Part shown: piece by piece, positions 37,003 through 59,371 of the stretch
Layout: the number at the start of each line of letters is the position of its first letter
Position numbering within the stretch: position 1 is the stretch's first letter
Assembly (NCBI GenBank): GCA_943356415.1
Contig: CALREW010000001.1
Coordinates: 289,900-350,611, forward strand
Origin: Candidatus Nomurabacteria bacterium
GTDB lineage: Bacteria > Patescibacteriota > Minisyncoccia > Phycocordibacterales > SBAW01
Direction: 5' to 3'
DNA: 60,712 nucleotides
Made by a program: the position numbers and the translations under genes
The notes under the pieces: generated by a model
Databases searched by the model: none
What the model was told of the DNA's origin: nothing
Seen by the model: only the letters and a program-made list of their open reading frames with translations

Positions 37003-37530
37003 CTACGATACCATGCGACTTCCCTTGCGACGGCGGTACGTATAGGAAAGTCCCAACGCAAAAGCTGCACCGATAAGCGCTGCGGCAATATAGGGCAACC
37101 ATTTATAAAGCACCCCGCTACCCTGCTTTTCAAGTACGGTGACTTCAAACGTCGTTTCTGCACGTGTTTCGGCGGCGGCCTCGTAGCGGGCATATACCGT
37201 ATACGTTCCCGGCGTTTCAAAGGTATACAGAAGGCCCGTATTCCCAATTTCTGCATGATGTATGCCCGTTGCAAAGAGGGTGCTCGAAGCACTCACGATG
37301 CGAAGCCACACGTCAGAGTATTCCGCAGCGCCTGCTGGTGTCTTTTTCCAAAGTTTAAAATCGAGATACGCAGGCTCCCCCGCAACGATAGGGTCAGACA
37401 AGCCAACATCAATAAGATAGGCTCCGGCATCGCGTTCGACGCTGCGACCGGTGACGTGACCTGATGCTATAAACGGTGAAATTGCAGCTAAAAGTAAAGT
37501 CAGCGCAACAATACTTCGGGGAGCTCTCAT
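37003..37530 (-). CDS. Exported Ig-like protein with C-terminal TM anchor
   Basis: Signal peptide ending ASG-H; FETPGTY.V motif; C-terminal TM followed by RRRK. Confidence 0.75.
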   Translation of the reverse strand: MRAPRSIVALTLLLAAISPFIASGHVTGRSVERDAGAYLIDVGLSDPIVAGEPAYLDFKLWKKTPAGAAEYSDVWLRIVSASSTLFATGIHHAEIGNTGLLYTFETPGTYTVYARYEAAAETRAETTFEVTVLEKQGSGVLYKWLPYIAAALIGAAFALGLSYTYRRRKGSRMVS

Positions 37531-37548
37531 AATTTTACTGTATCAGAG

Positions 37549-39060
37549 TTAGAGACCTCTCCGTGGATCTTCGCAGTAAGGACGGTATTTCTCATCAATG
37601 GTAGGACACACGTTTTGGTACTTCTCAGGTGCATACACAGATTTTGCCGTAGCAAACACCGCACGCACACATCCTATACGCTCATCCTCGGTAAGGGAGG
37701 CTTGCGAGCAGAATCGAAGTGCGATGCGGTACTCATTCCCCACGGTTAATCGCTCAAGAATGCCGGTGGGGATTCCGGTGATGCACGGGTCGACAAGATC
37801 CGACCGAGCACCGTGGCATGCATTAACAATCGATGCAAAAGCATCGGTCGAAAAATCCCTCATTGTAACGCCAAGGACGCGGGAGATCCCCTCCATGGCC
37901 AATCTTGAGTCAATTCGATTTTCGATACGTTCAACAAGGATTATCGACTTAGTGAAATCCGACCCGGTCTGCCTGAACACAGGCAGATTCATCTCGGAGA
38001 GGCATGGGGTTCGTATCCTACTCTCCTTCCAAGATGCACATACGCCATACAGATCGGCAACTGCAAGACGTAGACCGTATGCGTTGTTTATGTACAACAG
38101 GGCAAGAGAATCGAACGCGCCTGAAGCGCATCTGAAGAAATGTGGTTCAGTCGGATCAACACGTTCGCACAGCGCAAGTCCAGGTGCGATAAGTTTCTTT
38201 GGATCTTCCCAATCTCGTGGGTCAGCACCATCGACCGCGCCATGGCCGATTCCGTGATAACAGGCGCCTTCCACATTTCCTGCACCACCAGAGAGCGAAC
38301 GTGCCGCTTCAGCGCAAAAGCGCTTTGCTGCAGCGACATCGCCTGACTCCTGCAACATCGTTTCCATGAACCCATGATAGAACCCGAATCCGCAGTATGA
38401 AGCCTTATCCAAAAGCGGCATTGTCCCCTCCCGTGCAAATATCCGATACGCCGCTTCGCCAAGTGTATGGGCCGATGCGTGACACCAATCAGCGAACGCT
38501 GGATTTGTCTCATAGAGGCGCGACATTTCATTGAGCGCGGCTTCAAGCCCACGGTCAGCGAGTACGCCATTGATATGCTCCGCAAAACATTCGCCCGTGG
38601 GAGCATCCTTGTCCGTACACGTTTTTTGTACAACCGCCCCTCGTTGGTCAAGAACGATTATTTCTCCAACACGGCCAGGAACGAGGTGGTCATGGTATTG
38701 CCACAGACCGGGCGTAATAAACGTAAATGTCCAAGTGTCTCCAGGCGGTACCGGCCTCCTTGGATCAAAAGCGGCATAAATATTGTGCGTGGGATGGGGA
38801 TCAGATGCAGGCCACGCTTCTTTTCCTGTCGCATTCACAAACTGAACAGTGTCTCCCTGCTTTACGACGAGGCGTTGCGGGGAAAAGCCTTCTTCGGTGA
38901 GCGTAACGGTCCTGCCCTCAGAGAGCGTGTACTGGTCACCCGCTGAGAAAAGCGAGCTCCTGATGCCAGAAGCAAAGTAGAGAAGCGCGATGAGGACCGC
39001 TAGTGCACAAATGGAAACTGGGAGAGTCTTTTGCTTCCATATGGAGGAAATCAAGGTCAT
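37549..39060 (-). CDS. Cupredoxin-like domain + Cys/His-motif domain protein (paralogue 1)
   Basis: TM; FSP..L.V..GD.V.F.N, WPASDPHPTH, G.WQYHDH; WCHASAH.LG, CGFGFYHG, CYHGIGHG, CASGAF. Confidence 0.8.
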   Translation of the reverse strand: MTLISSIWKQKTLPVSICALAVLIALLYFASGIRSSLFSAGDQYTLSEGRTVTLTEEGFSPQRLVVKQGDTVQFVNATGKEAWPASDPHPTHNIYAAFDPRRPVPPGDTWTFTFITPGLWQYHDHLVPGRVGEIIVLDQRGAVVQKTCTDKDAPTGECFAEHINGVLADRGLEAALNEMSRLYETNPAFADWCHASAHTLGEAAYRIFAREGTMPLLDKASYCGFGFYHGFMETMLQESGDVAAAKRFCAEAARSLSGGAGNVEGACYHGIGHGAVDGADPRDWEDPKKLIAPGLALCERVDPTEPHFFRCASGAFDSLALLYINNAYGLRLAVADLYGVCASWKESRIRTPCLSEMNLPVFRQTGSDFTKSIILVERIENRIDSRLAMEGISRVLGVTMRDFSTDAFASIVNACHGARSDLVDPCITGIPTGILERLTVGNEYRIALRFCSQASLTEDERIGCVRAVFATAKSVYAPEKYQNVCPTIDEKYRPYCEDPRRGL

Positions 39061-39069
39061 ACAAAATTT

Positions 39070-40284
39070 TCAATTCGACAAGAGCGTACATTTCTTCGCA
39101 TACTCCGGAGGGAGCGCAGCGCACAGTGCTTGTCTACTGGGACTCCCCTCGACGAGATTGAACCGCATCATAGAAAGCAGGTAGGTATAGCAGCCATCTT
39201 GATACTCCGGAGACGCCAGCGCGCAGGCTGCTGACGCATCGGCTCCTTTTGTTCTATCTTCTTCAATAAACGCATTGGCAAGTATGCCGATACACTCAGG
39301 CACTCGTCCTTTCGGCATTTGCTCGCAAAGAGAAACTCGCGCTGAAGGATTACTGATACCGAAACGCGCACCGATACTAAAGACCGTTCGATAGCAGATT
39401 TCTTGTATCTTTGAATCTTTGCTCGATTGGCAGAATGCCTGTGTACCTGTAGCAGTTTGAAGTTCGTCTCTAAAAAGAGGCCAGCCTTCACTGAAGCATT
39501 GCCCTCGCTTTTGTTCAGTGTTGTAGGCAGCACAAAATGTCAGAAGCGTCTCTTTGGTCGGCTTAACGGGCAGTCGTTCGATGAGAGCGTAATCTTCAGG
39601 CTCAAGAGGCTGAAAAATCTGCATAAACACACCCGAGACACACGTTGGCACATACGCTTCTCTTCCCCGTCGTTGTGCGATTGCCCCACAATAATCCGCC
39701 GCCAAAGAGAGGTCTGCGTTCGTTAAGTGGGTCAATACGTGTCCAAGTGCGTGATAACACATAGCGCGATCGAGGTCCGACGGCTCCCACCCTGGAGCTC
39801 GCTCGCACGCTTCTGCGAAGTCGGGAACAATAGCGTCAATCTGCTCCTCGGAGAGGACCGCGTAGTTGAAACGCCCTACGATGATTCCATGAAGAAAACC
39901 ATTTGAGCAGAGACCGTCGGGCGGGTTTCTATGCATCAGGTCAACCCATTGATCCGGATTCTGCTTTACCAAAGCGGCTCCAAGCTCGTGACCGAGCACA
40001 TGGCAAAAACGGTACGAAGTATCTTCACGCTGTAGTGCCCGCACTACTGAAAACACTCCTTCGATAGGACTCACATAGAGGAGAAGCGGCACGTTCTCTT
40101 CGTAACAAAGCGGTTTGTCATTCCTCTCCGCACAATGCGTAACAATGACATGAGCCGCTGCGCGCGCAACACGCGAAGAGAGTCCTGGGAAAGAAGCAAC
40201 GACGACGTACAGAAACGCGCACACACCAAACAAAATGGCGAGTATGGTTCCTATCGTGCGAAGTACAGTGCGAGGTGTTTTCAT
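39070..40284 (-). CDS. Cys/His-motif exported protein (paralogue 2)
   Basis: TM; FCHVLGHELG, CSNGFLHG, CYHALGH, CVSGVFM. Confidence 0.8.
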   Translation of the reverse strand: MKTPRTVLRTIGTILAILFGVCAFLYVVVASFPGLSSRVARAAAHVIVTHCAERNDKPLCYEENVPLLLYVSPIEGVFSVVRALQREDTSYRFCHVLGHELGAALVKQNPDQWVDLMHRNPPDGLCSNGFLHGIIVGRFNYAVLSEEQIDAIVPDFAEACERAPGWEPSDLDRAMCYHALGHVLTHLTNADLSLAADYCGAIAQRRGREAYVPTCVSGVFMQIFQPLEPEDYALIERLPVKPTKETLLTFCAAYNTEQKRGQCFSEGWPLFRDELQTATGTQAFCQSSKDSKIQEICYRTVFSIGARFGISNPSARVSLCEQMPKGRVPECIGILANAFIEEDRTKGADASAACALASPEYQDGCYTYLLSMMRFNLVEGSPSRQALCAALPPEYAKKCTLLSN

Positions 40285-40290
40285 GTGCGT

Positions 40291-41793
40291 CTATTTGGAA
40301 GGGTCAATGCACATAGCTTTCAAATCAGATTCAACCCGGCTACAAATGGCCGCGTGTTTGTCCGCAGAATAAAATGCCTTTTCAGTTGCAAACGCAGCAC
40401 GCATACAAGCTACATGCTCATCATGCGTGAGAGACGACGTGGAACAAAACTCGAATGCTTTTTTGTATTCCTCCCCCGGTACCCCACCCTCATACATACC
40501 TCCAGGGATTCCACTGAGACACGGCACAACAAGGTCACGGCGAGCACTGTGACAGGCAGCAACCGCTGACACAAAGGCGTCTGGAGATGCCGATACTAAT
40601 TGTGCACCAACCACTCCAGCAAGGCTCTGCATAGCCATCGCTGCGTGGGGCATGCCATCAATACGCTCAATAGTCTGTATCGCTTTCTGTAAATCTCGAC
40701 CACTCTGTCGGAATACCGGTATATTCATCTCGTAGTAACACGGGATGCGTATTCGGTCCTCCGACCAACGCTCGCAAATACCGTACAGATCTGCCGTATC
40801 CAGTCGCAGTCCATAGGTATTGCTTATATACATGAGTGCCAGGGAGTTGAATGCCCCCGAAGCACATCTGAAGAAATGCGGTTCAGTTGGGTCAACACGC
40901 TCGCATAGCGCAAGTCCAGGTTCGATAAGTTTCTTTGGATCCTCCCAATCTCGAGGATCGGCTCCATCGACTGCACCGTGCCCAATGCCGTGGAAACACG
41001 CACCTTCGGCATTTTGTGTCTCATTACCGAGTATCTCTTGTGCGTGGGCACAGAAATCACGAGCCTTCCCCACATCTCCCGTTGACTGAAGCATGGCTTC
41101 CATAAATCCGTGATAGAAACCGAATCCGCAATACGACGTCTTCCCGGTAAGCTCCAAAGTGCCATCCTTCTCGTAGATGCGATACGCCTCTTCTCCAAGC
41201 GTGTGACTTACCGAATGGCACGAGTCCTTAAATCCTGGAACTTTCTCATACAGACGCGCCATTTCATTTAACGCAGCTTCAAGCCCCCTTTCTTTAAGAA
41301 CGTCTTTTACATCAGCTTCAAAACAACTGGCAGACTCTCTGTTAGCACTCGTGCATGCAGTTTTTACAACTGCACCTCGATAATCGAGAACGATAATCTC
41401 ACCTGTTTTATCTGATGCAAGATGATCGTGATATTGCCACACGCCGGGATTAGTAAATGTAAACTCCCAAGAACCTCCAGGCGCTATCGGCGCTCTGGGA
41501 TCAAACGCTGGATAAATAGTGTGGTTTGGATGCGAATCGGATGCTGGCCAAAACTCATGCGTCGTCGCGTTGTCGAAGTGAACCGTATCTCCTTGTCTGA
41601 CAACAAGTCGTGCCGGAGAAAAGCCCTCGTCAGTGCGCGTGATAGTTCTCTCTTCAGAAAGCTCGAACCGCTCGTCTGCAACGAAAAGTGAACGAGCCGC
41701 ACCGGAGGTAGCAACAAAAGACAGGAAGAAGGTACATGCAATAATGACCGATGCGATCGTGAGGGGCTTTAGTTTTGAAAATAAATTTTTCAT
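40291..41793 (-). CDS. Cupredoxin-like domain + Cys/His-motif domain protein (paralogue 3)
   Basis: Co-linear with 37549..39060; WPASDSHPNH, YHDH; SCHSVSH.LG, CGFGFYHG, CFHGIGHG. Confidence 0.8.
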   Translation of the reverse strand: MKNLFSKLKPLTIASVIIACTFFLSFVATSGAARSLFVADERFELSEERTITRTDEGFSPARLVVRQGDTVHFDNATTHEFWPASDSHPNHTIYPAFDPRAPIAPGGSWEFTFTNPGVWQYHDHLASDKTGEIIVLDYRGAVVKTACTSANRESASCFEADVKDVLKERGLEAALNEMARLYEKVPGFKDSCHSVSHTLGEEAYRIYEKDGTLELTGKTSYCGFGFYHGFMEAMLQSTGDVGKARDFCAHAQEILGNETQNAEGACFHGIGHGAVDGADPRDWEDPKKLIEPGLALCERVDPTEPHFFRCASGAFNSLALMYISNTYGLRLDTADLYGICERWSEDRIRIPCYYEMNIPVFRQSGRDLQKAIQTIERIDGMPHAAMAMQSLAGVVGAQLVSASPDAFVSAVAACHSARRDLVVPCLSGIPGGMYEGGVPGEEYKKAFEFCSTSSLTHDEHVACMRAAFATEKAFYSADKHAAICSRVESDLKAMCIDPSK

Positions 41794-42869
41794 AACGCAG
41801 GAGGGCGCGCGCCCTTAGGCGAAATGACCACTGCGGCGTGTATATAGAATGCACAATAGTCCTTATCCGCCTGAGGGAGTCCTTCGCATATTGCCATCGC
41901 CTTTGTACGGATGGTGCTCTCGGCAAACGCGCTACTTGCAGCGGCTGCGCGGCATAGCGTTTCTTCGTATTGGCGCGATGCAGCATCCTGACAGAGCGCA
42001 ATAGTCTTCTGCATGTCGTATGCGACCAACATCGGTGCCACGTAGCCAATACCTTCAAAACAAGGTTCTCTCAGCGCTGAGGGTGCGCTCCGACACCACC
42101 TACCCATTTGCGTAAAAATCACCGAGAACGTGACGCCGGGATAGTGCGTCGGTTGCGCCCACCACTGAGGCTGCCAAAATAAACAGACACGCGAATCTTC
42201 CTTAGAGAGCTCGAGACAAGGGAAAAAAGGATCATCTCCAAGCGGTCGGAGTCCTTCGTCACCTGGACCTCGCATCGTGTGCAAGTTGTATTCCATGATG
42301 GCCCCATTGATACAGTCTCCAAGTGGATCGTGGCTAAGTTCTTTGCACGTTGTAAGCGCCTTCTTTAGTCCTTCGACGTTGTAGCCTAGGTACAACTGTA
42401 TCCCGTGGCCAATACCATGGTTGCATCCCACGACATTAACGGCATCGAATGTCTCAAAACATTTTTGACCAAGCGCGGCGATCCCTGAAAGTCCTTGCGC
42501 TTGTATCACATATCCAAAAAGAGAGTGGAAACAGCCATATTGAAACGACGAGTCGCAGACTGCCAACCCATCGATACCCACACGCTCCGAGAGTGCTTCA
42601 CCGAAGAGATGTCCGGCTGCGTGTTGTTGGGGCAGCGTTAAGTTTGCGTAGGCTTGAAGAAATTCTGCGTAGGCTTCAGTGCCACCGAGCCGCTCTATTT
42701 CCCCCATCCAAAATTGATGGCCTCTCGACACTCCCTCTGGCGTTGTTATGTCAGGTGCCACAAAGTGAACGTTGGGAGAACCAATGTAGGGAATCAAAAA
42801 GAATCCAGCTGCGAGCGCTGCAAGTATAAGCGCAGCTACTATCTGTCTTTTCACTTCGCGCCGCGACAT
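41790..42869 (-). CDS. Cys/His-motif exported protein (paralogue 4)
   Basis: TM; QHAAGHLFG, CFHS, CNHGIGHG, CINGAIM. Confidence 0.78.
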   Translation of the reverse strand: MSRREVKRQIVAALILAALAAGFFLIPYIGSPNVHFVAPDITTPEGVSRGHQFWMGEIERLGGTEAYAEFLQAYANLTLPQQHAAGHLFGEALSERVGIDGLAVCDSSFQYGCFHSLFGYVIQAQGLSGIAALGQKCFETFDAVNVVGCNHGIGHGIQLYLGYNVEGLKKALTTCKELSHDPLGDCINGAIMEYNLHTMRGPGDEGLRPLGDDPFFPCLELSKEDSRVCLFWQPQWWAQPTHYPGVTFSVIFTQMGRWCRSAPSALREPCFEGIGYVAPMLVAYDMQKTIALCQDAASRQYEETLCRAAAASSAFAESTIRTKAMAICEGLPQADKDYCAFYIHAAVVISPKGARPPAL

Positions 42870-44101
42870 ATGGTTTGTGCGTCCTCAGGCAAGAGTTTGC
42901 AGAGTGGTTCGCGCTCCTCGCTTTTCGGCGCATATCGAGCCATAAGATGAGCGAGGTCATCGACGCACGCGTCGCCGTATTCTTTATTTTTGTTTGCGAG
43001 TACGTGGCAGTACCTAACCGACACCTGGGGCTCATTCTCTCCACCCCAATAGATGGAATGGAGCACGCTGAGAAGACAAAGCGTGGTGTCATGTTCGTTC
43101 CCTGAAAGGGCACACCACTGCCCCATCCGCTCAAATTCTTCATCGGTGATGGTCACAACGGTTCGCCTATCACTTTGGCGTGCGTAATTGAGTATTTCTT
43201 TTCCAAACGACGCAACACACGTATTTCGATCGGGGTCGTTGGGCGCAAGCACACGGCAGTACGAAAATGCTTTCGGATATACCGCTGGATTTGGACTATT
43301 CATGTCACCACCAGCAACTTCGATAAGGTGCGGAGTTATGTAGCTGTAGCAATAGGTTTTAACTTCAGCAGGCATAAATGCGGCGTCACACGGATAGAGC
43401 GGGTCTGCAGCATACAAATAATGTGGCCGCATCGATGCCCAAATACCAGGATTGTGACCCCCGCCAGAAATGGTCTCCATAACCGCCCCTCCAACACATT
43501 GTCCAAATTCCTGTCGATCATATTCGGCCGTCGCCGTTTTCTTGCACAGAGCGATGGTTTTCTCGAGATTGTAATCGGTGAACGCTAATATGCCGTGACC
43601 AAGCCCATGGAAACACATGGTGTACGCGCCGAGCCCTCCAGGCGCTTTCTTGCATGCGGCCTGTATGTCGTTGGTTGCCGCTTCGCCGTAATCGAGCATG
43701 AGACCGACAACAACGGTGTGCGAACAGGCATTTCGAAATTCGCTCGTACAGTAGGAAATCGCGTCCTTGCCATATTCTTTGTATAGCTGGTCGCCGATAA
43801 CGTGTCCGAGCAAGTGAACATCAGTTTTTGGCGGCAAGTCCACACGTCTCAATATTTCGTAGGCATAGAGCGCCCCTTTTTTTTCTGCGATATCTTGAAA
43901 ATAATCTCTCAGCTCGTTGAAGTCGCGCTGGTGCGATGCGATATCTCGCAATTCCGGATACGCAGTGGCTTTCTTCGTATATGCCACATATCCGTAACTG
44001 AGAAATGCTGCAAGTACTACCAACGTCGCAATAGCCACCACGCGATTATTCGTCACTCGCGCGGTACACGTTAAAAGAAAGTTACTGTATTTCTTCAGCA
44101 T
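42851..44101 (-). CDS. Cys/His-motif exported protein (paralogue 5)
   Basis: Start at MLKK (44101); TM; VHLLGHVIG, CSH, CFHGLGHG, CVGGAVM. Confidence 0.78.
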   Translation of the reverse strand: MLKKYSNFLLTCTARVTNNRVVAIATLVVLAAFLSYGYVAYTKKATAYPELRDIASHQRDFNELRDYFQDIAEKKGALYAYEILRRVDLPPKTDVHLLGHVIGDQLYKEYGKDAISYCTSEFRNACSHTVVVGLMLDYGEAATNDIQAACKKAPGGLGAYTMCFHGLGHGILAFTDYNLEKTIALCKKTATAEYDRQEFGQCVGGAVMETISGGGHNPGIWASMRPHYLYAADPLYPCDAAFMPAEVKTYCYSYITPHLIEVAGGDMNSPNPAVYPKAFSYCRVLAPNDPDRNTCVASFGKEILNYARQSDRRTVVTITDEEFERMGQWCALSGNEHDTTLCLLSVLHSIYWGGENEPQVSVRYCHVLANKNKEYGDACVDDLAHLMARYAPKSEEREPLCKLLPEDAQTICRGAK

Positions 44102-44168: not shown

Positions 44169-44573
44169 ATGCCAGCCGCGCTTGCGCTACTTGTCACGAT
44201 TGGGTTTGCTGCAGGTGCAGGGGCAGCGCTCTACGCATCACCCCTTATCGAGGAAGGAAGCAGCTACTCAACGTGGGTCCTCGGGTCACGTTCAAATCTC
44301 CTGTCCCTAGGCGGAAGTGTGGAAGCAATCGGGGATAATTTTTTTGTACTGAAAGAAGAAGGTGGCGATATGCGCATCCATATGGCCTATGACGCGCAAA
44401 CGCTCTCCCTTGCCTTATCTGAAAAAGAGGAATCCGGCGTCATAACCGGCACGCGACTCTTGGTTGTCCCGCCGCAAGAATACTTACAAACAGGAGCGCT
44501 TGTGCGAATCGTACTGCGCTCGACACCAGAGACGAGCGCACCGTACGCGGCACTTATTACCCTAACACCCTGA
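44169..44573 (+). CDS. Small exported beta-rich protein (DUF5666/OB-like, tentative)
   Basis: Signal/TM; G.V..IGDNFF.L...T...G..V.I pattern; TATACT 7 nt upstream. Confidence 0.65.
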   Translation: MPAALALLVTIGFAAGAGAALYASPLIEEGSSYSTWVLGSRSNLLSLGGSVEAIGDNFFVLKEEGGDMRIHMAYDAQTLSLALSEKEESGVITGTRLLVVPPQEYLQTGALVRIVLRSTPETSAPYAALITLTP

Positions 44574-44574: not shown

Positions 44575-45042
44575 ATGTTCTCTGTACCAAAAGAAACATA
44601 CATATACGTTGGTTGCATCGCTATCCTTGCCATACTCTTGGGTGCAAGCGTTGTTTGGAATATCTTTCAATTGCGCGCTGCTCAGCTGGCCTCACTGCAG
44701 CAAGACAAAGCAGTGATAGCGGCTCTCAATGAAAACTTGCGACGCCGCGGCACCGTTATTGGAAACGACCCGATTACAAAAAAAATACGCATTGCGTACG
44801 TGGCAGCCGGCACCACGGTTAAGAAACGCATGGAAATCACTCTTAGTCCTGCCGCGAACATCCAACGCACCAGTGCAATAAAAAATAGTGAAGGTGTTAT
44901 TGTCGGCGTGAAAGCAGCGCGAATACTTCAGGAAAATGTACGTATCGGAGAGGATATCTATCTCATCACGAAGCCTACGACTGTCGGCGAATCATTTGAA
45001 ACATCGACCGTTTTTGTTGGAGATATTCTTCAGCGTCAGTAA
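44575..45042 (+). CDS. Small membrane-anchored protein (OB-like, tentative)
   Basis: N-terminal TM; RGTVIG...IGEDIYL pattern; 1 nt after the previous stop. Confidence 0.65.
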   Translation: MFSVPKETYIYVGCIAILAILLGASVVWNIFQLRAAQLASLQQDKAVIAALNENLRRRGTVIGNDPITKKIRIAYVAAGTTVKKRMEITLSPAANIQRTSAIKNSEGVIVGVKAARILQENVRIGEDIYLITKPTTVGESFETSTVFVGDILQRQ

Positions 45043-52885: not shown

Positions 52886-53641
52886 CTATCTACCGAACAA
52901 ACCATTGATAAGACTGACAAACGGCAGTCCGAAAGAACCGGTGCCCACATCTGCGACGGGCGCGTAGAGGTACGACCCCCTATCAACAAGCGCGTCCTTG
53001 CCTTTAGCAACCTCAACAACAATTGGATGTGCCAAAATGTAAGGGTCATGGCGTGTGCCAGTTACTTGCCACGAAACCGTGCCGCCTGCTACTCCACCTG
53101 CAACGCGGAAGCGATTATCTTTCACGCCATCGCGAATATAGAGATTCGGCATGGGCTGACCTATCGGTTTTAATTGATAGCGAAAATCTTTATTGAGCGC
53201 TTCAAAGTATGCCGGCAGCTGCACTACTGCTTCACCAGCGTTATCGAGCTTCGCCACACCATCGTACATATTTTTTACATCAGGACTCTCCACGAACGAG
53301 TGATACAGCAGTTTGTTTGCAGGGTCGAGTGGATGGTCGATGACGAACGTTCCGCTACCTTTAGAAATATTTCCAGTGACGTTAAAGTTGAGCGCCGCGG
53401 TCGCATTTTGTGTAAACGTAAGTTGATACGACGGCTGATAATAGCTCTGGTAATACCCCTGGTAGTAGCCTTGGTAGTACCCCTGGTAATACCCCTGGTA
53501 ATAGCCTTCGTAATACCCTTGGCCATAACAAGTGCCACCTCCTCCACCGGCAAATGCCGCCACCGGAAGCAAGAGCCCGCCTGAAAGCATCGCAGCCAAA
53601 AGGCGTAGCACGTGTCGCTTAGTGTTTTTCATAGCCTTCAT
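52886..53641 (-). CDS. Exported FVIDHPLDP-domain protein with N-terminal Gly5 and (YYQG)n tract
   Basis: Signal peptide ending AFA|GGGGG; seven YYx[G/S/P] units; FVIDHPLDPANKLLYHSFVESPDVKN.YDG; start may be 53632. Confidence 0.8.
   Translation of the reverse strand: MKAMKNTKRHVLRLLAAMLSGGLLLPVAAFAGGGGGTCYGQGYYEGYYQGYYQGYYQGYYQGYYQSYYQPSYQLTFTQNATAALNFNVTGNISKGSGTFVIDHPLDPANKLLYHSFVESPDVKNMYDGVAKLDNAGEAVVQLPAYFEALNKDFRYQLKPIGQPMPNLYIRDGVKDNRFRVAGGVAGGTVSWQVTGTRHDPYILAHPIVVEVAKGKDALVDRGSYLYAPVADVGTGSFGLPFVSLINGLFGR
53252..53353. repeat. 102-bp exact direct repeat, copy 1 (copy 2 at 53934..54035; 51-bp core also at 54549..54599)
   Basis: Base-by-base identity checked by eye; encodes GTFVIDHPLDPANKLLYHSFVESPDVKNMYDGVA. 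Confidence 0.9.
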
Positions 53642-54179
53642 AGAGGTACGCTCCTTTTTTCACGAGTGCATCTTCACCTTTATCGACTTCCACACGAGTA
53701 TCAATTTGCAGAATAGCAGGGTCGTGACGATTGCCCGTTATCTGCCACGATACACGGTTTCCTGGTGTACCGCCGGCAATAACAAAACGATTTTTCGTAA
53801 CATCTGCACCTTCCTTCAGATACAAGTTCGGATCTGCGCTATCGAGCGGAAAAAATTGATACCTGAAATCTTTGTTAAGTGCATCGAAGTATGGTGGCAG
53901 CGAAATAATTACTTCGCCTTTCGCATCAACAAGCGCCACACCATCGTACATATTTTTTACATCAGGACTCTCCACGAACGAGTGATACAGCAGTTTGTTT
54001 GCAGGGTCGAGTGGATGGTCGATGACGAACGTTCCTGTGGTTTTCGTCAACGTCCCAGATATGGAAAGGCTCCCACTAAAGCGTGTTCCTACGGTGATGG
54101 TGACCGCAGTCACGGCCACCGGCGTAATAAGAAGCGCGAAAGTGGCAAGCCCGGTGATAATCTGTTGTTTATTTACCAT
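53619..54179 (-). CDS. Exported FVIDHPLDP-domain protein (paralogue 2)
   Basis: Signal peptide; same domain (SWQITG.RHD). Confidence 0.82.
   Translation of the reverse strand: MVNKQQIITGLATFALLITPVAVTAVTITVGTRFSGSLSISGTLTKTTGTFVIDHPLDPANKLLYHSFVESPDVKNMYDGVALVDAKGEVIISLPPYFDALNKDFRYQFFPLDSADPNLYLKEGADVTKNRFVIAGGTPGNRVSWQITGNRHDPAILQIDTRVEVDKGEDALVKKGAYLYEGYEKH
53934..54035. repeat. 102-bp exact direct repeat, copy 2
   Basis: Identical to 53252..53353. Confidence 0.9.
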
Positions 54180-54744
54180 AGGCTTCAGGCGTCAGATATT
54201 CTCCCTTCTTTACCGGCGTTGAATCGTCCTTGGTCACTTCAGTCACGATAGGGTTATCCATAATGAACTTGTCATGGCGGATTCCCGTTATCTGCCAGGA
54301 GACCGAACCCCCTGCCACTCCACCGGTAATTGTAAATCGTATGGGTCCAAACAACCCGAACCAGCGACGATGCACTTCTTTTTTAAGATGGAGATTCGGC
54401 ATGGGCTGCCCGATAGGCGTCGCGAGGTAACGGAAATCTTTGTTAAGTGCTAAAAAATATGATGGGAGCGGTATCTCTGCCTCGCCGTTTTCATCAAGCT
54501 CAATAATCCCATCGTAAATATTTTTAACGTCAGGGCTTTCTACAAAAAAGTGATACAGCAGTTTGTTTGCAGGGTCGAGTGGATGGTCGATGACGAACGA
54601 TCCGGCAACCTTTGAGAGAGCCCCGACGACGTTGGTGCCCTGTATAGCGACCGTTGAGTTAAAGGTAACCGCGTCTACCACCGTTGCCGACACCCCCCAC
54701 AAGAGGAGTGCCCCGAACGCCGCCACAAACCCTCGCTTCAACAT
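54169..54744 (-). CDS. Exported FVIDHPLDP-domain protein (paralogue 3)
   Basis: Signal peptide; same domain; TG-extended TATCCT 6 nt upstream. Confidence 0.82.
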   Translation of the reverse strand: MLKRGFVAAFGALLLWGVSATVVDAVTFNSTVAIQGTNVVGALSKVAGSFVIDHPLDPANKLLYHFFVESPDVKNIYDGIIELDENGEAEIPLPSYFLALNKDFRYLATPIGQPMPNLHLKKEVHRRWFGLFGPIRFTITGGVAGGSVSWQITGIRHDKFIMDNPIVTEVTKDDSTPVKKGEYLTPEAYGK

Positions 54745-54766: not shown

Positions 54767-56245
54767 TTATTTCCTTTCTAGACCGACTCGTAAATCCTTT
54801 GCTTCAGCATACGCGGGCCTCAATTGAAGCGCCTCGTCAAGCATCTTCTTCGCTTCGGGACGCTTCCGAGCCAAGATGTACAGCTGGGCTGCAAAAAAAC
54901 GAGCTGACGGATCACTTGGAGATCGTGCAATCGCTTGATTGAACGCTTCGACACCCGACTGGAGAAGTTCCTTGTCTGGCTTCATGGCGTATCTCTCTGC
55001 AATGGTAATACCTAGCATTTTCCAGTTCTGCGCGTTGTATGGGTCGCGAGCGGCAATATCTTTTGCAACAAGAAAGGCGTCATGGAAGAGCGGTGAGACC
55101 GCATCGACCGTAGCGTTATGTTGGGACAGCTCGCGCGCTTCAGCGCGGAGAATCTGAGCGTACAATCGCCCCGCTCGGGAGTTGGCATCCATTCCGTACG
55201 AGAGCTGCATTCTGACCCGAGCGTTTGGAAGATCGCCAGTTGCCGCCGTTGAAAATGCACTGACGTACAGAATCGTCGCAAAAAGAAAGTACACAGTGCC
55301 CGCTGCACCTATGTAGAAGAAGATAGTTGCGCCTCGCGCTACGTATGGATGTGGTACGAGGGTGTGAGAAGAAATTCGTTTGCATGTGCCGAGTACGACA
55401 AAAGAAAGGAGAACGACGGCTACTGAAGGTTCTGCAAATGCGAGGGATGCTACCGACACCAGAAGGAGTACGGGCCCCAGCAAAGCCGAGAGGCGATGCA
55501 TGTGTGTAGACGTGCGCCAACGAGTAATACCATCCACGGTCGTCTCAGCAAACACGGCGAAGAATGCAACGACCAGTAGAAAGGTGCCAAGCAACCCTAT
55601 TTCAATAACGAGCGTCGGTAGTATGCCGGAGCCGGTGGTAAAATCTTCACTCCAGAAAGGCGTGAGATTCACGCTCTGCGGCCGATACTGCTGCCACGCG
55701 CGCACAAACGCGCCCGGACTCTCACCGACCAACAACGCGCGTGTGCCGTGTTCAAAAAAGAAACTCGACGCAATAGACGTCGTCATCGACAACGAAGGAC
55801 GGACGTGTGGAATCGTTCGTAAATATGGAACGGAAACGATACCGATAAGGAGCGTGCCCGCTACAACAAGAAGTGCGCGTCGTGGGATATCCGGGAGCGC
55901 ACTACACACCCAGGAGAGCGCCGCGCATAGTAGGAGCATGAACGCTGAAGTCATATCAAAAGCGAGACTTGAAAATACTTCCGCAATACTGCCGGAACAT
56001 GCCGCGGAGACAACAACAATCACACAAAACAGAAAGAGGCTCGCCTGTGCAAACGACGTCTTTCTCACGTCAGGCACGTATCCACGACGTATTGACCAGA
56101 TAAAAAGAGAAATACCGCACAAAAAAAGAGCTGCCGCGGCAACGCTCTCAGCTGCCGGACCCTCCACAAAAAGAGAAACGGCCACGTAGACGGCGGCCGG
56201 AACAAGACATATACCAAGTGCAGCGTATGGAACAACCTTGCTCAT
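54767..56245 (-). CDS. Multi-TM protein with C-terminal TPR-like repeats (O-antigen-ligase-like, tentative)
   Basis: About 10 TM helices; G.SPG.F...W..Y.P..VN.T.FW and E.G.LG motifs; TPR-like tail; start at MSKV (56245). Confidence 0.7.
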   Translation of the reverse strand: MSKVVPYAALGICLVPAAVYVAVSLFVEGPAAESVAAAALFLCGISLFIWSIRRGYVPDVRKTSFAQASLFLFCVIVVVSAACSGSIAEVFSSLAFDMTSAFMLLLCAALSWVCSALPDIPRRALLVVAGTLLIGIVSVPYLRTIPHVRPSLSMTTSIASSFFFEHGTRALLVGESPGAFVRAWQQYRPQSVNLTPFWSEDFTTGSGILPTLVIEIGLLGTFLLVVAFFAVFAETTVDGITRWRTSTHMHRLSALLGPVLLLVSVASLAFAEPSVAVVLLSFVVLGTCKRISSHTLVPHPYVARGATIFFYIGAAGTVYFLFATILYVSAFSTAATGDLPNARVRMQLSYGMDANSRAGRLYAQILRAEARELSQHNATVDAVSPLFHDAFLVAKDIAARDPYNAQNWKMLGITIAERYAMKPDKELLQSGVEAFNQAIARSPSDPSARFFAAQLYILARKRPEAKKMLDEALQLRPAYAEAKDLRVGLERK

Positions 56246-56287
56246 TGCCTTCACAGTATACGGTACTGAAAAACTCTCGGAGGCCGT

Positions 56288-57397
56288 TTAGTGTTGAACG
56301 TTGATAGCTTCGCAACGCTTGGTGAGTTCCTTTTGCAGCGTCTTACAAAAATCCTTTTTTTGAGCCGCCTTCCCCGCAAATCCTCGCTTTACCGCAGTAG
56401 CTACATTGAGGAGGCATTGTTCTTCAAACGGTCCCGCCGTCGCGCATCGTTTATGCATTGTATCGAAATCGGTTCCACTATCGGTGATAGAAATAGATGC
56501 GACTTGTTCTCGACACGAGAAGGCATTCTCTGCTACATCGAGTTTGGCGCACGCTGCAAAGGCGCCGGCAAAATCCCCTCGGTGAGTGTTGAGGTAAGAG
56601 CGTCCAACAAAAAGTGAACATTCGGTCTTAAAAACCGTAAGTCCATTGCACAGCGAGAGCATGCTGTCCCCTTCCTGCTGTTTCGGCAATTTCAGTGAAT
56701 TGATGTAATCAACGCTATAGAGATAGCTCTTCTCCATGAGTGCTCCGTACGCACATCGACCACGCATCCATTCGTATGGCAGCCGCGAACAGATAGGAAG
56801 CACATCACTTACCTTGTTCTCATAGGCATACATAAGGCCGTGACCTACCGCATGGAAACACTGCATATTTGCCGTCCAGGAAAAATCTTCCGTCATCGGG
56901 TTCGTCGGCACCCAGTGGTCGGCACAACTTTCATGAATGAGTTGGTCAATCGGCGTACGACTTCTCTCTACTTTGAAATATTCCATCAGGAGCCCGTGCT
57001 GAAAACCTTCGTAGGTAAGGTAGTTGGCATACGTTGGCGCTTCAGGCGGCAACGTGTCCATCGCCGCTTTGCGAGAACCAAGCTGGTCATAGGCTTGCAT
57101 GCCGACCATGTGCATCGCGAGATGCGCGGTGTTGCGGTTGTATGGAGCTACTACTTCAGCGGTATAGCGAATTGCGCCAATAACATCACCGCTCATCGCG
57201 ATATAGTGCGCTTTATCACGCATACACACGCGAACATTCTCCTCTGAAAAACACGAGTCTTTGGGACTCAGGTAGAACACGACGTCCGCGCGATACACGT
57301 ACAGCACGATGGCACCAAGTACACCAAACGCGACGAGTGCAGCGCGTACATCACGCTTTGCCAACATAGAGAGGAGCCATTGCTTGGCGTGTTTCAT
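56288..57397 (-). CDS. Cys/His-motif exported protein (paralogue 8)
   Basis: TM; AHLAMHMVG, EGFQHG, CFHAVGHG, CAYGALM. Confidence 0.78.
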   Translation of the reverse strand: MKHAKQWLLSMLAKRDVRAALVAFGVLGAIVLYVYRADVVFYLSPKDSCFSEENVRVCMRDKAHYIAMSGDVIGAIRYTAEVVAPYNRNTAHLAMHMVGMQAYDQLGSRKAAMDTLPPEAPTYANYLTYEGFQHGLLMEYFKVERSRTPIDQLIHESCADHWVPTNPMTEDFSWTANMQCFHAVGHGLMYAYENKVSDVLPICSRLPYEWMRGRCAYGALMEKSYLYSVDYINSLKLPKQQEGDSMLSLCNGLTVFKTECSLFVGRSYLNTHRGDFAGAFAACAKLDVAENAFSCREQVASISITDSGTDFDTMHKRCATAGPFEEQCLLNVATAVKRGFAGKAAQKKDFCKTLQKELTKRCEAINVQH

Positions 57398-57406: not shown

Positions 57407-58699
57407 CTATAGCAAACGTTTCTTTTTGCTCCATCCAATCCACGCTTCAACCGGGCGACACTCAATCACAATGGGACGCACCGACCCTTCTGCGACAATA
57501 TCAGCGTACGAAAGCGCCGGGGCTATTTTGATCCCCTCACTGAGGGTTTTTGCAATCGCTTCATCAAGTTCCCCATCTCCTTCATCCATATAGAGCGTGA
57601 TTGAAAGCCCTGGCACTTCTCCCGCGGCGTCCCAAGAGGCAGCAAACTCTTTTATCTCAATAGAAAGGCCCGCAACCGCCTGATCAACTGCAGCGATGGT
57701 AAGCACCCCGCGCGGCACACGTATGCGATCGAGCGTGAGTCTGCCCATACATTCAAACAAGAGCGGGCTACCCTCGCACGAACATGTCTCGGAGCGAATG
57801 CGGGCAAAATCGCCGGTACGATAACGAATAAGTGGAAATGCCTGGGGCTCATGTGTGGTGATGACGAGCTCTCCTTCCGTACCGGCCGTAAGCGGCAGAC
57901 TCTCCCCTGTCTCTGGACTAATAAGCTCAATGAATAAGGAGCCTTCAGCAACATGGAACGCTTTCGGGTCACTGCTCATTTTCTCTGGGCACGTATAGCC
58001 GACAAAGCCTTGCGATTCAGTGAGTCCGTACTGAGATGCAATCTTAGCGTTCGGAAAAAACTCTTGTAATTTCGTAAACTGCAATGTGGTAGCTAACTCC
58101 CCCACAGCGACCACAAGACGCACCGCTCTGCATCCATCCAGTGCTTTCAAAAAAGGAGCAAAAGAGACGAGACCGCTAGGACTTCCCACTACGGCATCAA
58201 CTTGTGCTTCTGCGGCAAGTCGTGCGGTAAGCTTCGGTTGCGTAAAATCACCAGATATAAACATTCGCCCCTCCATGCCTCGCACACGCACTTCATGTAC
58301 AAATGACCCTGCAGAGAAAAGCAACTGCGACTTAATGTTCATTGACGAGAAGTATGGCTCGAAATAGCGAGACAATTGCCCCGACACGGGCACGTGGCCA
58401 ATGCTTTTCAAATATTCTTGGTACAGTCCCTCCTCAAGCATCGGAAAGCCAATGACATTTTTCCCCGTTGAACCGGATGTCGAGCGTATAAAGCGCACCA
58501 TAGTTTGTGGCACAAATACGCGTGAGCGTAACGGCACTGCTTCAATCTCAGGCCTTGTGAGAAACGGTACCGCAGCGACAGACTGTGAGAGAAGCGCTTC
58601 GAACTCTGCGCCGTACTTGCGGCGATAGAAATCGGAGTGGGGATTATGGAGCGCAAACGTAAGCGCCCGATGCATGAGCGTCTCTATCTTTTCTTTCAT
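57407..58699 (-). CDS. PaaK/coenzyme F390 synthetase-like adenylate-forming (ANL) enzyme, copy B
   Basis: DFYRRKYG, TSGSTG, YGLTE, GELVIT, LIRYRTGD; co-linear with 45048..46328. Confidence 0.88.
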   Translation of the reverse strand: MKEKIETLMHRALTFALHNPHSDFYRRKYGAEFEALLSQSVAAVPFLTRPEIEAVPLRSRVFVPQTMVRFIRSTSGSTGKNVIGFPMLEEGLYQEYLKSIGHVPVSGQLSRYFEPYFSSMNIKSQLLFSAGSFVHEVRVRGMEGRMFISGDFTQPKLTARLAAEAQVDAVVGSPSGLVSFAPFLKALDGCRAVRLVVAVGELATTLQFTKLQEFFPNAKIASQYGLTESQGFVGYTCPEKMSSDPKAFHVAEGSLFIELISPETGESLPLTAGTEGELVITTHEPQAFPLIRYRTGDFARIRSETCSCEGSPLLFECMGRLTLDRIRVPRGVLTIAAVDQAVAGLSIEIKEFAASWDAAGEVPGLSITLYMDEGDGELDEAIAKTLSEGIKIAPALSYADIVAEGSVRPIVIECRPVEAWIGWSKKKRLL

Positions 58700-59148
58700 G
58701 GCAATAGGTCGTGCACAACGATGGCGCCGGGGACGTCAAAAGAACTTTGCTCTTCCTTTGTAGAGAGAACGACCCAAAGTCGTATACGCTCAAGCATGCG
58801 AACCTCAGTTAAATCTGCCAGGAGATTGCGGGCGCCCACATCGTTCGTAATCACCGCATCTATTTCAACGTTGCGCATGAGACCCGTGAGTGCTGAGACA
58901 TTGGTCGGCATGGCCACCGCAGTGATGACGCCGCGTTTATTTGCTTCCTGGTACGCAGCAAAGTGTTGCTGCCATGCAAACGGCAACACAATGCCGAGAC
59001 CTTGTATGTTTGCTTCTTCAAGCGCCTTCCCAAGTACTGGCCACGTGAGGCTCACTTCCGCTGTCTGCGCAACAGGAACAGCAAACGTTTCCCCGTAGGC
59101 GCGCGGAACGATGCGCCATAGTTTTGGGTCATGCTCCGGCACGCGCAT
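58696..59148 (-). CDS. 150-aa hypothetical protein, copy B
   Basis: ATG 59148 gives exactly the length of copy A and avoids overlap with the peptide gene; shared motifs. Confidence 0.78.
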   Translation of the reverse strand: MRVPEHDPKLWRIVPRAYGETFAVPVAQTAEVSLTWPVLGKALEEANIQGLGIVLPFAWQQHFAAYQEANKRGVITAVAMPTNVSALTGLMRNVEIDAVITNDVGARNLLADLTEVRMLERIRLWVVLSTKEEQSSFDVPGAIVVHDLLP

Positions 59149-59173
59149 AGCAAACTGCTTCAAAATAATCGGT

Positions 59174-59371
59174 CTAGAAAAGCCCCCCGCATCCGACGTA
59201 ATACACCCGTTCATCTGAGTCCTTTTGAGCCTGCGTATCGCCATTCTGTTCAGGAGACGTACACTGGAGCGCCGAAACATCTCCAGACGCGTGCCAAAGG
59301 CCAAACGAGCCAAGAACCGCAACGGCCGCAAGTGACATAAGTGAGAAAGCTCCTTTTAAAAACCGCTTCAT
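59174..59371 (-). CDS. Small exported peptide, copy B (65 aa, ends RVYYVGCGGLF)
   Basis: TG-C-TATACT 7 nt before ATG 59371; LGSF, L.CT.PE and CGGLF motifs. Confidence 0.8.
   Translation of the reverse strand: MKRFLKGAFSLMSLAAVAVLGSFGLWHASGDVSALQCTSPEQNGDTQAQKDSDERVYYVGCGGLF

Follow-up and report, generated by a model that had tools for sequence, protein, structure and literature searches.

A conserved envelope gene cluster of Candidate Phyla Radiation bacteria with a fibre module, a Cys/His protein array and an adenylating enzyme encoded beside a Cys-tailed membrane microprotein

Does a long run of genes for membrane-anchored and secreted proteins represent one system of the cell envelope or a mere hotspot of unrelated insertions, and, in the former case, what would such a system do? 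The question is raised by a gene cluster of a Candidatus Nomurabacteria bacterium (assembly GCA_943356415.1, contig CALREW010000001.1, positions 289,900-350,611), a stretch of 60,712 nt which was analysed as a whole and is referred to here as the window. A first-pass annotation of this DNA had limited the cluster to positions 37003-59371 and had read it as one extracytoplasmic system. The cluster proved to be larger, reaching from 36097, with the gene hyp299 at its left edge, past 59371 into a giant fibre gene which that annotation had missed; 25 densely packed genes lie between 36097 and the window end, 24 of them complete and one still open there. A comparison of neighbourhoods across genomes confirmed that the cluster is a real conserved unit in relatives belonging to the Candidate Phyla Radiation (CPR), not a random hotspot: it is probably a supra-operon of Paceibacteria-type CPR bacteria (relatives of Kaiserbacteria and Adlerbacteria). 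That it forms one functionally linked envelope system is, in our judgement, highly probable. The complete statement, namely a conserved CPR envelope supra-operon of three co-inherited modules, in one of which the tail of a microprotein is charged by thioester chemistry, is put forward tentatively, with the balance somewhat against it. No description of such a cluster was found in the literature searched, in agreement with the first-pass annotation, which knew of no pathway of this composition, and the cluster is rated as lying outside the known kinds of system.

All-against-all BLASTP resolved the content into eight Cys/His proteins (CH), two sets of a peptide, a partner and an adenylate-forming enzyme of the ANL type (ANL), two paralogues of a protein called X, three proteins with the signature FVIDHPLDP (FVID), two small proteins and one TPR membrane protein. 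Every family listed by the first-pass annotation was thus recovered at or near its positions; the two small proteins, which it had paired, are both present and anchored by a transmembrane (TM) helix but show no detectable paralogy to each other. As had also been claimed, nearly all products carry a signal peptide or a TM anchor: an N-terminal hydrophobic helix occurs in 20 of the 24 complete products, which are predicted to be membrane-anchored or secreted, and is absent only from both ANL enzymes and both partners. Likewise, no housekeeping family was detected within the cluster by Pfam and NCBIfam scans of its proteins. The genes are as follows.

36097-36996, minus strand: hyp299, TM-anchored, with a C-terminal bacterial surface Ig-like domain (Pfam PF16403, E 2.7e-8); left edge of the cluster.
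37003-37530, minus strand: SPTM175, with a signal peptide, a beta-rich domain of ~120 aa and a C-terminal TM anchor (two hydrophobic segments; alignment of 8 sequences).
37549-39060, minus strand: CH1, a TM helix, a cupredoxin-like 4-His domain and a putative Cys/His alpha-solenoid (BLASTP paralogy; Pfam Cupredoxin_1 below cut-off).
39070-40284, minus strand: CH2, a TM-anchored putative Cys/His alpha-solenoid (BLASTP paralogy).
40291-41793, minus strand: CH3, a TM helix, a cupredoxin-like domain and a putative Cys/His solenoid, 58% identical to CH1.
41790-42869, minus strand: CH4, a TM-anchored putative Cys/His alpha-solenoid (BLASTP paralogy).
42851-44101, minus strand: CH5, a TM-anchored putative Cys/His alpha-solenoid; the open reading frame (ORF) reaches 44197, the likely start Met being at 44101.
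44169-44573, plus strand: smallA, 134 aa, TM-anchored, no family match.
44575-45042, plus strand: smallB, 155 aa, TM-anchored, no family match.
45048-46328, minus strand: ANL1, a cytoplasmic PaaK-like adenylate-forming enzyme with complete core motifs (Pfam AMP-binding, PDB matches).
46325-46777, minus strand: pseudo-ANL1 (the partner of the first-pass annotation), 150 aa, cytoplasmic, a paralogue resembling a fragment of the ANL N-domain (hhalign).
46794-46982, minus strand: microprotein 1, 62 aa, with a basic N-terminus, a hydrophobic helix, a mid Cys, an acidic linker and the C-terminus VYQIWCGGIY-stop.
47068-48669, plus strand: X1, an N-terminal TM helix and an extracytoplasmic domain of ~500 aa.
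48663-49874, minus strand: CH6, a TM-anchored putative Cys/His alpha-solenoid.
49932-51668, plus strand: X2, a paralogue of X1, 33% identical.
51665-52876, minus strand: CH7, a TM helix and an all-alpha solenoid of Cys-stapled helix pairs in its AlphaFold2 model.
52886-53641, minus strand: FVIDc, a signal peptide, a Gly and YYQ-repeat stretch and the FVID domain.
53619-54179, minus strand: FVIDb, a signal peptide and the FVID domain.
54169-54744, minus strand: FVIDa, a signal peptide and the FVID domain (AlphaFold2 model).
54767-56254, minus strand: TPRmem, a multi-pass membrane domain (no family match) and C-terminal TPR.
56288-57397, minus strand: CH8, a TM-anchored putative Cys/His alpha-solenoid, 9 bp downstream of ANL2.
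57407-58699, minus strand: ANL2, the second PaaK-like adenylating enzyme, 42% identical to ANL1.
58696-59148, minus strand: pseudo-ANL2, 36% identical to pseudo-ANL1.
59174-59371, minus strand: microprotein 2, 65 aa, its C-terminus reading VYYVGCGGLF-stop; the giant fibre gene lies 45 bp upstream.
59417-60712, minus strand: surfrep, a giant fibre-like repeat protein of which the window holds the last 431 aa, the gene continuing past its end (frame open; PHROG tail-fibre match, 3.8e-5).

The unity of these genes was assessed by anchoring searches on three of the families. With FVID as the anchor, its alignment was scanned against one genome per species, which returned 370 stretches; 75 loci were examined and annotated with hidden Markov models (HMMs) built from the window families. 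Among 45 tandem-FVID loci, all from CPR genomes, 34 contained CH genes (as many as 9 copies), 21 contained X and 14 contained ANL, the figures for the 28 loci with at least 8 kb of flank being 22, 16 and 14. The 28 single-FVID loci (Chloroflexota, Ignavibacteria, Hyphomicrobiales, Acidobacteriota and others) yielded CH in two, X in one and ANL in one. The recurrent gene order was giant fibre, three FVID, a variable number of CH and SPTM175, followed by the convergent X, peptide and ANL; SPTM175 ends the Cys/His array in the related loci and faces X. Order and orientation of the modules vary among six of these loci (L001, L002, L004, L007, L023 and L048), and the modules are still adjacent, at identities across related loci of 25-65% for ANL, 15-43% for X and ~20-60% for the Cys/His proteins, with 0-9 copies of CH.

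With ANL as the anchor, the ANL alignment was scanned against metagenome contigs, which gave 80 loci. The eight closest relatives (L083-86, 89, 92, 95 and 100) all showed the order ANL, peptide, X; the four of them with sufficient flank (L083, L086, L089 and L100) also contain CH, and SPTM175 was found in L083, L086 and L089. No such peptide accompanied the ~70 more distant PaaK-like loci, among which only L111 and L112 gave a weak X-like match. With CH as the anchor, close relatives lay in syntenic clusters (L001, L002), while distant ones in Binatia-like genomes were single genes in unrelated contexts. Furthermore, smallA, smallB and the TPR membrane protein occur together in five loci (L001, L004, L007, L008 and L009), hyp299 homologues mark the cluster edge in six (L002, L004, L009, L032, L048 and L069), and the synteny with GAPDH at the cluster edge is shared with L004 and L009, which belong to other genera. 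Since the modules stay neighbours despite rearrangement and low identity, their families are not independently distributed within the CPR. The one-system reading of the first-pass annotation is upheld to this extent by the HMM neighbourhood comparison, the families co-occurring in related loci; the independent distribution that it had named as a refutation was not seen within the CPR. FVID and CH also occur singly in other phyla, so that the families are separable.

The alternative that best survives these data is that of a conserved neighbourhood of three independent envelope functions, a tail-fibre-like adhesin, a group of receptors or metal proteins in the membrane and a PaaK-like ligase whose CoA thioester would feed envelope or lipid metabolism, kept together by regulation or descent, the microprotein being a membrane subunit of X. 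The occurrence of FVID and CH alone in other phyla speaks for it, as does the absence of CH from 11 of the 45 tandem-FVID loci, and many tandem-FVID loci lack X or ANL in the available sequence, so that the modules are separable; this weighs at the same time against the single apparatus proposed below. FVID, X and ANL occur without CH in L026, L040, L045, L056, L057 and L071, the set of smallA, smallB and TPR protein is restricted to a subset of loci, and the GAPDH synteny shared with L004 and L009 points to vertical inheritance. Nevertheless, adjacency outlasts rearrangement at ANL and X identities of ~15-30%, and the trio of ANL, peptide and X is invariant, with tails that co-vary with the ANL clades. 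Moreover, genes of different modules are interleaved in single co-directional runs with gaps of at most 45 bp. The first of the two long minus-strand runs comprises the fibre gene, peptide 2, partner 2, ANL2, CH8, the TPR protein, FVIDa, FVIDb, FVIDc and CH7, and the second CH5, CH4, CH3, CH2, CH1, SPTM175 and hyp299; the observation of the first-pass annotation that the second peptide operon leads directly into a Cys/His gene was accurate, as this is CH8. Three independent functions are consequently held to be unlikely, while deserving serious consideration.

What, then, could the system do? A mechanistic reading can start from ANL, its partner, the microprotein and X. The 13 ANL family members keep the P-loop [ST]SG[ST]xG[RK], the Yxx[ST]E (YxxxE) motif, RYRTGD, the hinge GR..D and the terminal Lys; an N-terminal YRRKYG motif and a CxCG motif are present as well. 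Pfam AMP-binding matches ANL1 with E 2.7e-7 (30.2 bits against a gathering threshold of 29.9) and ANL2 with E 1.9e-6, just below it (27.4 bits); the NCBIfam models matching ANL1 are of the DVU_1553/PaaK-like kind, all far under their cut-offs. The matches in the PDB were AjiA1 (7.9e-14), a PaaK-like ligase (1.5e-12) and PaaK (3.6e-8), PaaK-like ligases ranging from 1e-12 to 5e-8. ANL therefore looks, by its motifs, like a complete PaaK-like adenylating enzyme that appears active. An assignment to PaaK proper was rejected, the scores being far under cut-off (36.9 bits against 646.3 for TIGR02155, and 77 against 300 for NF045666) and no paa catabolic genes being found among the window genes scanned. 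AjiA1, the closest relative of known structure, is grouped with NatL2, an adenylating enzyme by which an ester is formed without CoA (PMC7204872).

The partner of the first-pass annotation is indeed present twice and is recast here as a degenerate ANL paralogue. By hhalign it matched 241-aa proteins found at the same position in L002-type loci (probability 97.8, E 1e-12), and these in turn matched ANL residues 139-306, including PLxRY...CxCG (probability 94, E 1e-7); the direct comparison of partner and ANL gave E 2e-4. Because its profile is ANL-derived and both the P-loop and the C-terminal subdomain are missing, as they are from the 241-aa relatives, the partner is, judging from these profiles, a catalytically dead ANL paralogue and no novel fold. 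A match to the designed repeat protein 8etq was discarded, as it covered 23 residues only. In an Adlerbacteria metagenome-assembled genome (MAG) the pseudo-ANL is split into ORFs of 60 and 51 aa (L004 12066-12400, the same as L010), which is a frameshift or an assembly error, the gene being intact in the related L009.

Two further arrangements around this module were noted. A TM-anchored protein of the DctP family (TRAP-type, carboxylate-binding), with no DctQM seen, lies beside or between the pseudo-ANL and ANL of the L002-type module (L002 15118-16179, and also L083, L085, L086, L089, L091, L100, L050, L052, L021 and L065). In one Kaiserbacteria genome (L002 16216-21173 and L045 262-2918), an MBOAT gene and a DltA-like AMP-binding gene have an X paralogue immediately downstream, and the 241-aa pseudo-ANL comes next; no other connection of X to a classical pathway of envelope acylation was found.

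The peptides of the first-pass annotation are real, being members of a microprotein family with 25 distinct sequences from related loci. All 25 have a hydrophobic N-terminal helix and, at position -5, a Cys, after which come Gly-Gly and a final pair of residues that are hydrophobic or aromatic; the complete tail, [IV]-[YF]-x-[VIL]-x-C-G-G-[IVLFM]-[FY]-stop, is found in 24, one sequence ending in L, and one additional variant ends in CGGFLN. An acidic linker precedes the tail, the N-terminus is basic in the members that were read fully, and a further upstream Cys is present in 24 of the 25, located 19-36 residues from the end in 22 of those. The Cys-Gly-Gly tail is thus the most constrained feature of the microprotein. 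A lipoprotein was considered and rejected: the mid Cys lies 10-35 residues past the hydrophobic helix and there is no lipobox. The distance between peptide and ANL is 17-80 bp in nearly all L002-type loci and 310-475 bp in the window type, where it is longer because the pseudo-ANL lies in between. Tail and enzyme co-vary: VGCGGLF accompanies the ANL2 clade (3/3), in which the peptide gene comes immediately after that of the giant fibre, [VI]WCGG[VI][YF] the ANL1 clade (6/6), with X flanking, and [ST]CGGxx the L002 clade (12 loci). The X family comprises 520 representative clusters, all of 350-640 aa, with E..R, two Tyr, two Pro and four Cys as invariant residues, and gave no PDB, Pfam or NCBIfam match. 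The trio of ANL, peptide and X is, in summary, an evolutionary unit. The cytoplasmic activation of exported peptides proposed by the first-pass annotation is consistent with this pattern, in which an enzyme with intact motifs always stands by a microprotein and its clade co-varies with the tail.

The scheme that we infer concerns topology, metal binding, thioester chemistry, what X does and what the whole is for. The charging module, in which the cytoplasmic ANL would work with its dead paralogue, would be the sole ATP-using part. ANL would act on the microprotein while this is still in the cytoplasm, an encounter which could take place before export because a protein of 60-80 aa is too short for co-translational targeting. 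The tail, C-G-G-hydrophobic-aromatic, would be converted into a thioester on its Cys in the manner of LuxE, although in trans; this is proposed because ANL enzymes normally end with a thioester and LuxE does so on a tail Cys. The acyl group might come from a small carboxylic acid or be supplied by the C-terminus of the peptide itself, the latter option yielding a five-residue thiolactone as in autoinducing peptides (AIPs). The microprotein would then insert with its N-terminus in and its C-terminus out, an orientation predicted because the N-terminus is basic and the C-terminal part acidic, and the activated tail would be exposed outside, where there is no ATP. There it would be used by the TM-anchored X and, in the second copy, by the adjacent fibre protein. 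The fibre module would consist of the giant secreted repeat protein and the three secreted FVID proteins, probably forming a heterotrimeric tip. The membrane-anchored array would hold 3-9 CH solenoids, each displaying five invariant His and a Glu as a putative extracytoplasmic metal site, and would have as accessories the cupredoxin-like domain with its four His and a protein that begins with His. The overall purpose would be the building or arming of a surface structure.

Several points weigh against this scheme, in addition to the loci without CH mentioned above. We know of no ANL enzyme that acts on a ribosomal microprotein, and the ANL, being ordinary-looking and PaaK-like, could simply make an aryl-CoA. 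The tail is predicted to be located outside and the ANL inside, so that charging must precede export. X has no recognisable catalytic triad, and the DctP-like protein, frequent in the L002-type module and absent from the window, has a role that the scheme leaves unexplained. The chances that the microprotein is a direct substrate or partner of ANL are considered to be even.

A special case of the charging model, with signalling as its purpose, would be that the microprotein is a precursor akin to the peptides made on the ribosome and modified after translation (RiPPs), ANL adenylating the C-terminal carboxylate and the Cys attacking it to give an AIP-like five-residue thiolactone signal, either set free or shown on the surface, with X as receptor or processing partner. 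The invariant Cys at -5, followed by two small and two hydrophobic residues, is the AIP ring pattern, and nothing extends past the ring; the aromatic last residue would suit a PaaK-type aryl pocket, the N-terminal hydrophobic helix resembles the membrane targeting of AgrD, and ThiF-like enzymes are known for an ATP-dependent C-terminal adenylation which leads to thiolactone or imide rings. Nevertheless, Pfam and NCBIfam revealed no equivalent of AgrB, AgrC or AgrA and no sensor kinase in the cluster, the enzyme superfamily is unlike that of every known enzyme activating a peptide C-terminus, the CGGFLN member indicates that the spacing from the C-terminus is not strictly constant, and no signal-peptidase or leader-cleavage site is evident in the microprotein. 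The presence of two or three such modules beside surface-fibre genes would also suit a structural role better, and a signal of this kind is deemed improbable.

The charging scheme borrows from several described systems, and membership was tested against PaaK catabolism, LuxCDE, Dlt/MBOAT-SGNH, Agr, ThiF-type RiPPs, blue-copper cupredoxins, YcnI/CopC and defence; in each case a defining feature is missing, and the resemblances are mechanistic analogies only. LuxE, a relative of PaaK, transfers an acyl group from acyl-AMP to a Cys next to a Gly in a flexible C-terminal motif without CoA, and this tail carries the thioester to the partner (PMC9157457). In LuxE, however, the Cys tail is on the enzyme itself, which has no C-terminal ANL subdomain, whereas the window ANL keeps the subdomain and its Lys and the Cys tail is on a separate microprotein; LuxE and LuxC gave no Pfam match in the window. 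In the Dlt system, an acyl group is shuttled by DltX, a membrane microprotein, through a C-terminal motif on the extracytoplasmic side (PMC12148441). The two systems have in common a cytoplasmic ANL, a membrane microprotein with an invariant C-terminal motif and a TM-anchored extracytoplasmic partner; they differ in the motif, FXYXXF with acyl-Tyr in Dlt (PMC12148441) against CGG-hydrophobic-aromatic here, and in the ANL, which is PaaK-like rather than DltA-like. No Pfam or NCBIfam match to MBOAT, a carrier protein or SGNH/DltD was obtained in the window, and a Dlt-like shuttle with an MBOAT was not adopted, since MBOAT and DltA-like genes were found in a single genome only, that of L002/L045.

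With Agr the cluster shares a small peptide with an N-terminal membrane-targeting helix and a Cys five residues from the mature C-terminus, followed by hydrophobic residues; AgrB, however, removes a C-terminal tail from AgrD and forms the thiolactone without ATP, whereas here there is no such tail and the adjacent enzyme is ATP-dependent. The ThiF-like RiPP enzymes (MccB, PaaA, EnfB and the streptococcal thiolactone cyclase) offer an ATP-dependent activation of a carboxylate on an adjacently encoded ribosomal peptide, leading to macrocycles that include thiolactones. They do so with an E1/ThiF fold and a RiPP recognition element, in contrast to the ANL fold and dead paralogue found here, where a membrane helix replaces the soluble leader, and ThiF had no match in the cluster. 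PaaK and NatL2/AjiA1 share fold and motifs with ANL, but the window enzyme has neither a paa nor a benzoxazole context and its family stands always beside the microprotein and X. Bufferins and other MNIO-modified RiPPs with Sec signal peptides are similar in that a Cys-containing precursor is marked for export, its modifying enzyme has a partner without catalytic activity, and the system is connected with copper outside the cytoplasm. They differ in employing MNIO/DUF692 with DUF2063, neither of which was matched in the window by Pfam or NCBIfam.

In the Cys/His array, pairwise E-values among the eight CH proteins range from 1e-4 to 0 (BLASTP), each containing 14-21 Cys and 9-18 His. The AlphaFold2 model of CH7 (pLDDT 94.8, pTM 0.90) shows an N-terminal TM helix and then ~20 helices; when it was searched against the PDB with Foldseek, just generic ARM/HEAT/TPR matches with TM-scores of ~0.2 were returned, and an assignment to any of these three families was therefore not adopted. 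About seven Cys pairs, spaced 8-14 residues apart, each bracket a hairpin of a short and a long helix. According to this model, CH is a TM-anchored, disulfide-stapled alpha-solenoid with no relative in the PDB, that is, a newly found fold family. Across 61 sequences, H110, H114, H146, H185 and H189 are invariant and E225 nearly so, and they lie at corresponding places, close to where each of four successive long helices begins; because of this repeat register, from which alone the patch is deduced, the His may form a contiguous patch and thereby a putative metal site. In a distant locus (L164 2175-16673), three CH-like genes share the neighbourhood with glycosyltransferases of the PMT_2 type, DUF7282 proteins, a TPR membrane protein and a protein with a Hint domain, a context which hints at a link of CH proteins to protein glycosylation or processing.

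The cupredoxin-like domain stands at the N-terminus of two of the eight CH proteins and is a separate gene in some loci. Its motif, WPAS..H..H...FD...W..HDH, is at least 90% conserved across 46 copies, and Pfam Cupredoxin_1 matched with 22.4 and 16.9 bits against a cut-off of 27. A type-1 (blue) copper site was rejected, as neither Cys nor Met is conserved; four His are conserved instead, and a 4-His site is plausible from the alignment. In SPTM175, an invariant His25 follows immediately after an AxA-type signal-peptidase site in 8/8 sequences and would become N-terminal upon the predicted cleavage; the protein had no Pfam, NCBIfam or PHROG match, and the PDB profile search gave just filamin Ig repeats at E 0.5-1.6. 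An N-terminal His and a C-terminal TM anchor recall the histidine-brace copper proteins of the YcnI/CopC type. SPTM175 has the mature N-terminal His of these proteins, on the assumption of the predicted cleavage, and lacks a sequence or structure match to DUF1775/CopC. The extracellular metal-dependent tailoring or sensing suggested by the first-pass annotation would rest on such invariant His clusters; the FVID proteins resemble tail-fibre tips rather than tailoring enzymes.

These features also raise the possibility of a system for the acquisition or handling of copper or another metal outside the cytoplasm, with the peptide as a chalkophore-like factor matured by ANL. The five invariant His and the Glu of CH, the four His conserved in the 46 cupredoxin-like domains, the invariant His with which mature SPTM175 is predicted to begin, together with the YcnI-like C-terminal TM anchor of that protein, and the two conserved Cys of the microprotein would fit. 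Neither the cluster nor the related loci, however, contain a metal transporter or a P-type ATPase, and a chaperone and a metal regulator are likewise absent; the CH Cys are regularly paired, as in disulfides, and do not look like thiolate ligands; CopC, YcnI and the type-1 copper site gave no Pfam match; and the fibre module would be left unexplained, which makes metal handling as the main function quite improbable.

The fibre module includes surfrep, whose relatives of 800-3100 aa have in common a highly conserved C-terminal domain of 200 aa and tail-fibre-like GxGTxxP repeats; in most of the related loci its homologues are encoded upstream of the three FVID genes. The three FVID proteins are mutually 50-63% identical (BLASTP), and the family keeps 47-70% identity across phyla, with 42 invariant columns; its signature, FVIDHPLDP...LLYHSFVESPD, is covered by no Pfam, PHROG or NCBIfam model. 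Outside the CPR, FVID is the C-terminal domain of secreted proteins of 400-1000 aa with Laminin_G_3 or Gly-rich domains. In two Hyphomicrobiales MAGs (L062 8612-10486 and L043 8381-10474) it ends proteins with Laminin_G_3 lectin-like domains, one of which also matches the N-domain family of clostridial neurotoxin receptor binding. FVIDc (52886-53641) has a Gly run and a Tyr/Gln repeat (GYYQGYYQGYYQ...) between signal peptide and domain, and repeats of a similar kind are found again in distant homologues (see P0169 and P0163).

The AlphaFold2 model of FVIDa has a pLDDT of 71, with a confident beta-sandwich at residues 73-156 and the region of the signature motif below 50. Foldseek against the PDB returned 4ru5, 6ct8, 6cl6 and 4mtm at probabilities of 0.96-0.99, although with weak E-values (0.015-0.04), these being C-terminal domains of the phage phi297 tailspike, the R2-pyocin fibre and the AP22 gp53 fibre. 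Against BFVD, 15 matches had E of at most 1e-3 (best 8e-8, 22-27% identity), comprising minor tail and tail-fibre-like proteins. On the strength of the model, FVID is a domain of the tail-fibre-tip type, structural rather than a tailoring enzyme. The trio is probably a heterotrimeric fibre tip, because the three paralogues are always in tandem and the monomer is modelled with low confidence at the motif, which is suggestive only. The beta-sandwich resembles the C-terminal domains of phage tail fibres, tailspikes and R-pyocins by Foldseek, but FVID is represented here by three secreted paralogues, each of them short and standing alone, which are encoded in a chromosomal operon free of phage genes. 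In a non-CPR locus (L005 6007-10525), an FVID-domain gene is located by a TrwB-like coupling protein, a relaxase, an MT-A70 methylase and a TacA/acetyltransferase toxin-antitoxin pair. That the cluster is what is left of a prophage or tailocin, or else a hotspot where unrelated genes were inserted, as the tail-fibre-like FVID fold and giant repeat protein and the FVID gene beside conjugation genes in L005 might suggest, is hardly credible, given that Pfam and PHROGs scans found no capsid, sheath, baseplate, integrase or replication genes, that the GC content is uniform with the flanks, that the position next to GAPDH recurs in other genera and that the cluster is conserved in dozens of genomes.

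As regards the remaining properties of the locus, the longest ORFs of CH5, CH6, X1, peptide 2 and partner 2 are over-extended with respect to their likely starts; that of CH6 (48663-50306) overlaps the start of X2 on the opposite strand by 375 bp, an overlap which is abolished by the likely start at 49874. The convergent pairs X1/CH6 and X2/CH7 overlap in their stop regions by 7 and 4 bp. Scans of the cluster proteins with Pfam, NCBIfam, PHROGs and PADLOC gave just weak AMP-binding, cupredoxin and TPR matches, the surface Ig-like domain of hyp299 and one weak tail-fibre match, and none of ten cluster proteins matched an anti-phage defence model of PADLOC; PDB sequence and profile searches with FVID, SPTM175, X, the partner and CH returned nothing meaningful. 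Annotated homologues are hypothetical proteins of Candidatus Kaiserbacteria, Adlerbacteria and other Patescibacteria. A promoter and terminator scan found promoters not above chance (9 observed against 14 expected). The window sequence is present in lake-water metagenomes, the matching runs being all DNA; no RNA runs containing it were found.

The left flank is occupied by central-carbon genes, GAPDH (34993-36066) being followed by RpiB, Rpe, transketolase and aldolase. Farther away in the window, a sortase gene (7155-7796, Pfam Sortase 8.5e-19) stands beside two ORFs without assigned function (4331-5731, plus strand, and 5953-7101, minus strand), in a region (4331-7796) whose GC content is markedly higher, 0.60-0.61 against ~0.50 elsewhere; these ORFs might encode substrates of the sortase or have been acquired. 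On one side of ribosomal protein L25 lies a protein resembling lytic transglycosylases (SLT_2, 25304-26725), and on the other, at 27494-28108, one that resembles type IV pilins and carries an N-terminal methylation motif.

Going beyond the charging scheme, it may be speculated that a thioester, possibly a self-thiolactone, on the Sec-inserted microprotein carries chemical energy across the membrane in a manner new to biology and is spent outside by X and the fibre proteins in covalently ligating or anchoring surface structures, for instance in tethering the giant tail-fibre-like adhesin to the membrane, while the His-cluster solenoids would be a new class of metalloprotein in the same apparatus; this is a long shot, and is offered as such.

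CPR bacteria, or Patescibacteria, make up a large share of bacterial diversity, have tiny genomes and live attached to other cells, and most of their envelope proteins are without known function. In this context, a cluster that takes up more than 24 kb of a contig of ~426 kb and recurs in many lineages is likely to be central to their surface biology. It provides three entry points, namely a confidently modelled fold family with an invariant 5-His/Glu site, a domesticated trio of tail-fibre-tip type and an adenylating enzyme tied to a microprotein with a Cys tail. If ANL charges that tail, this would represent a new class of peptide or protein modification and a new route to energy-requiring chemistry outside the membrane, which, if true, would be relevant to RiPP enzymology, to envelope biogenesis and to the attachment of symbionts to their hosts.

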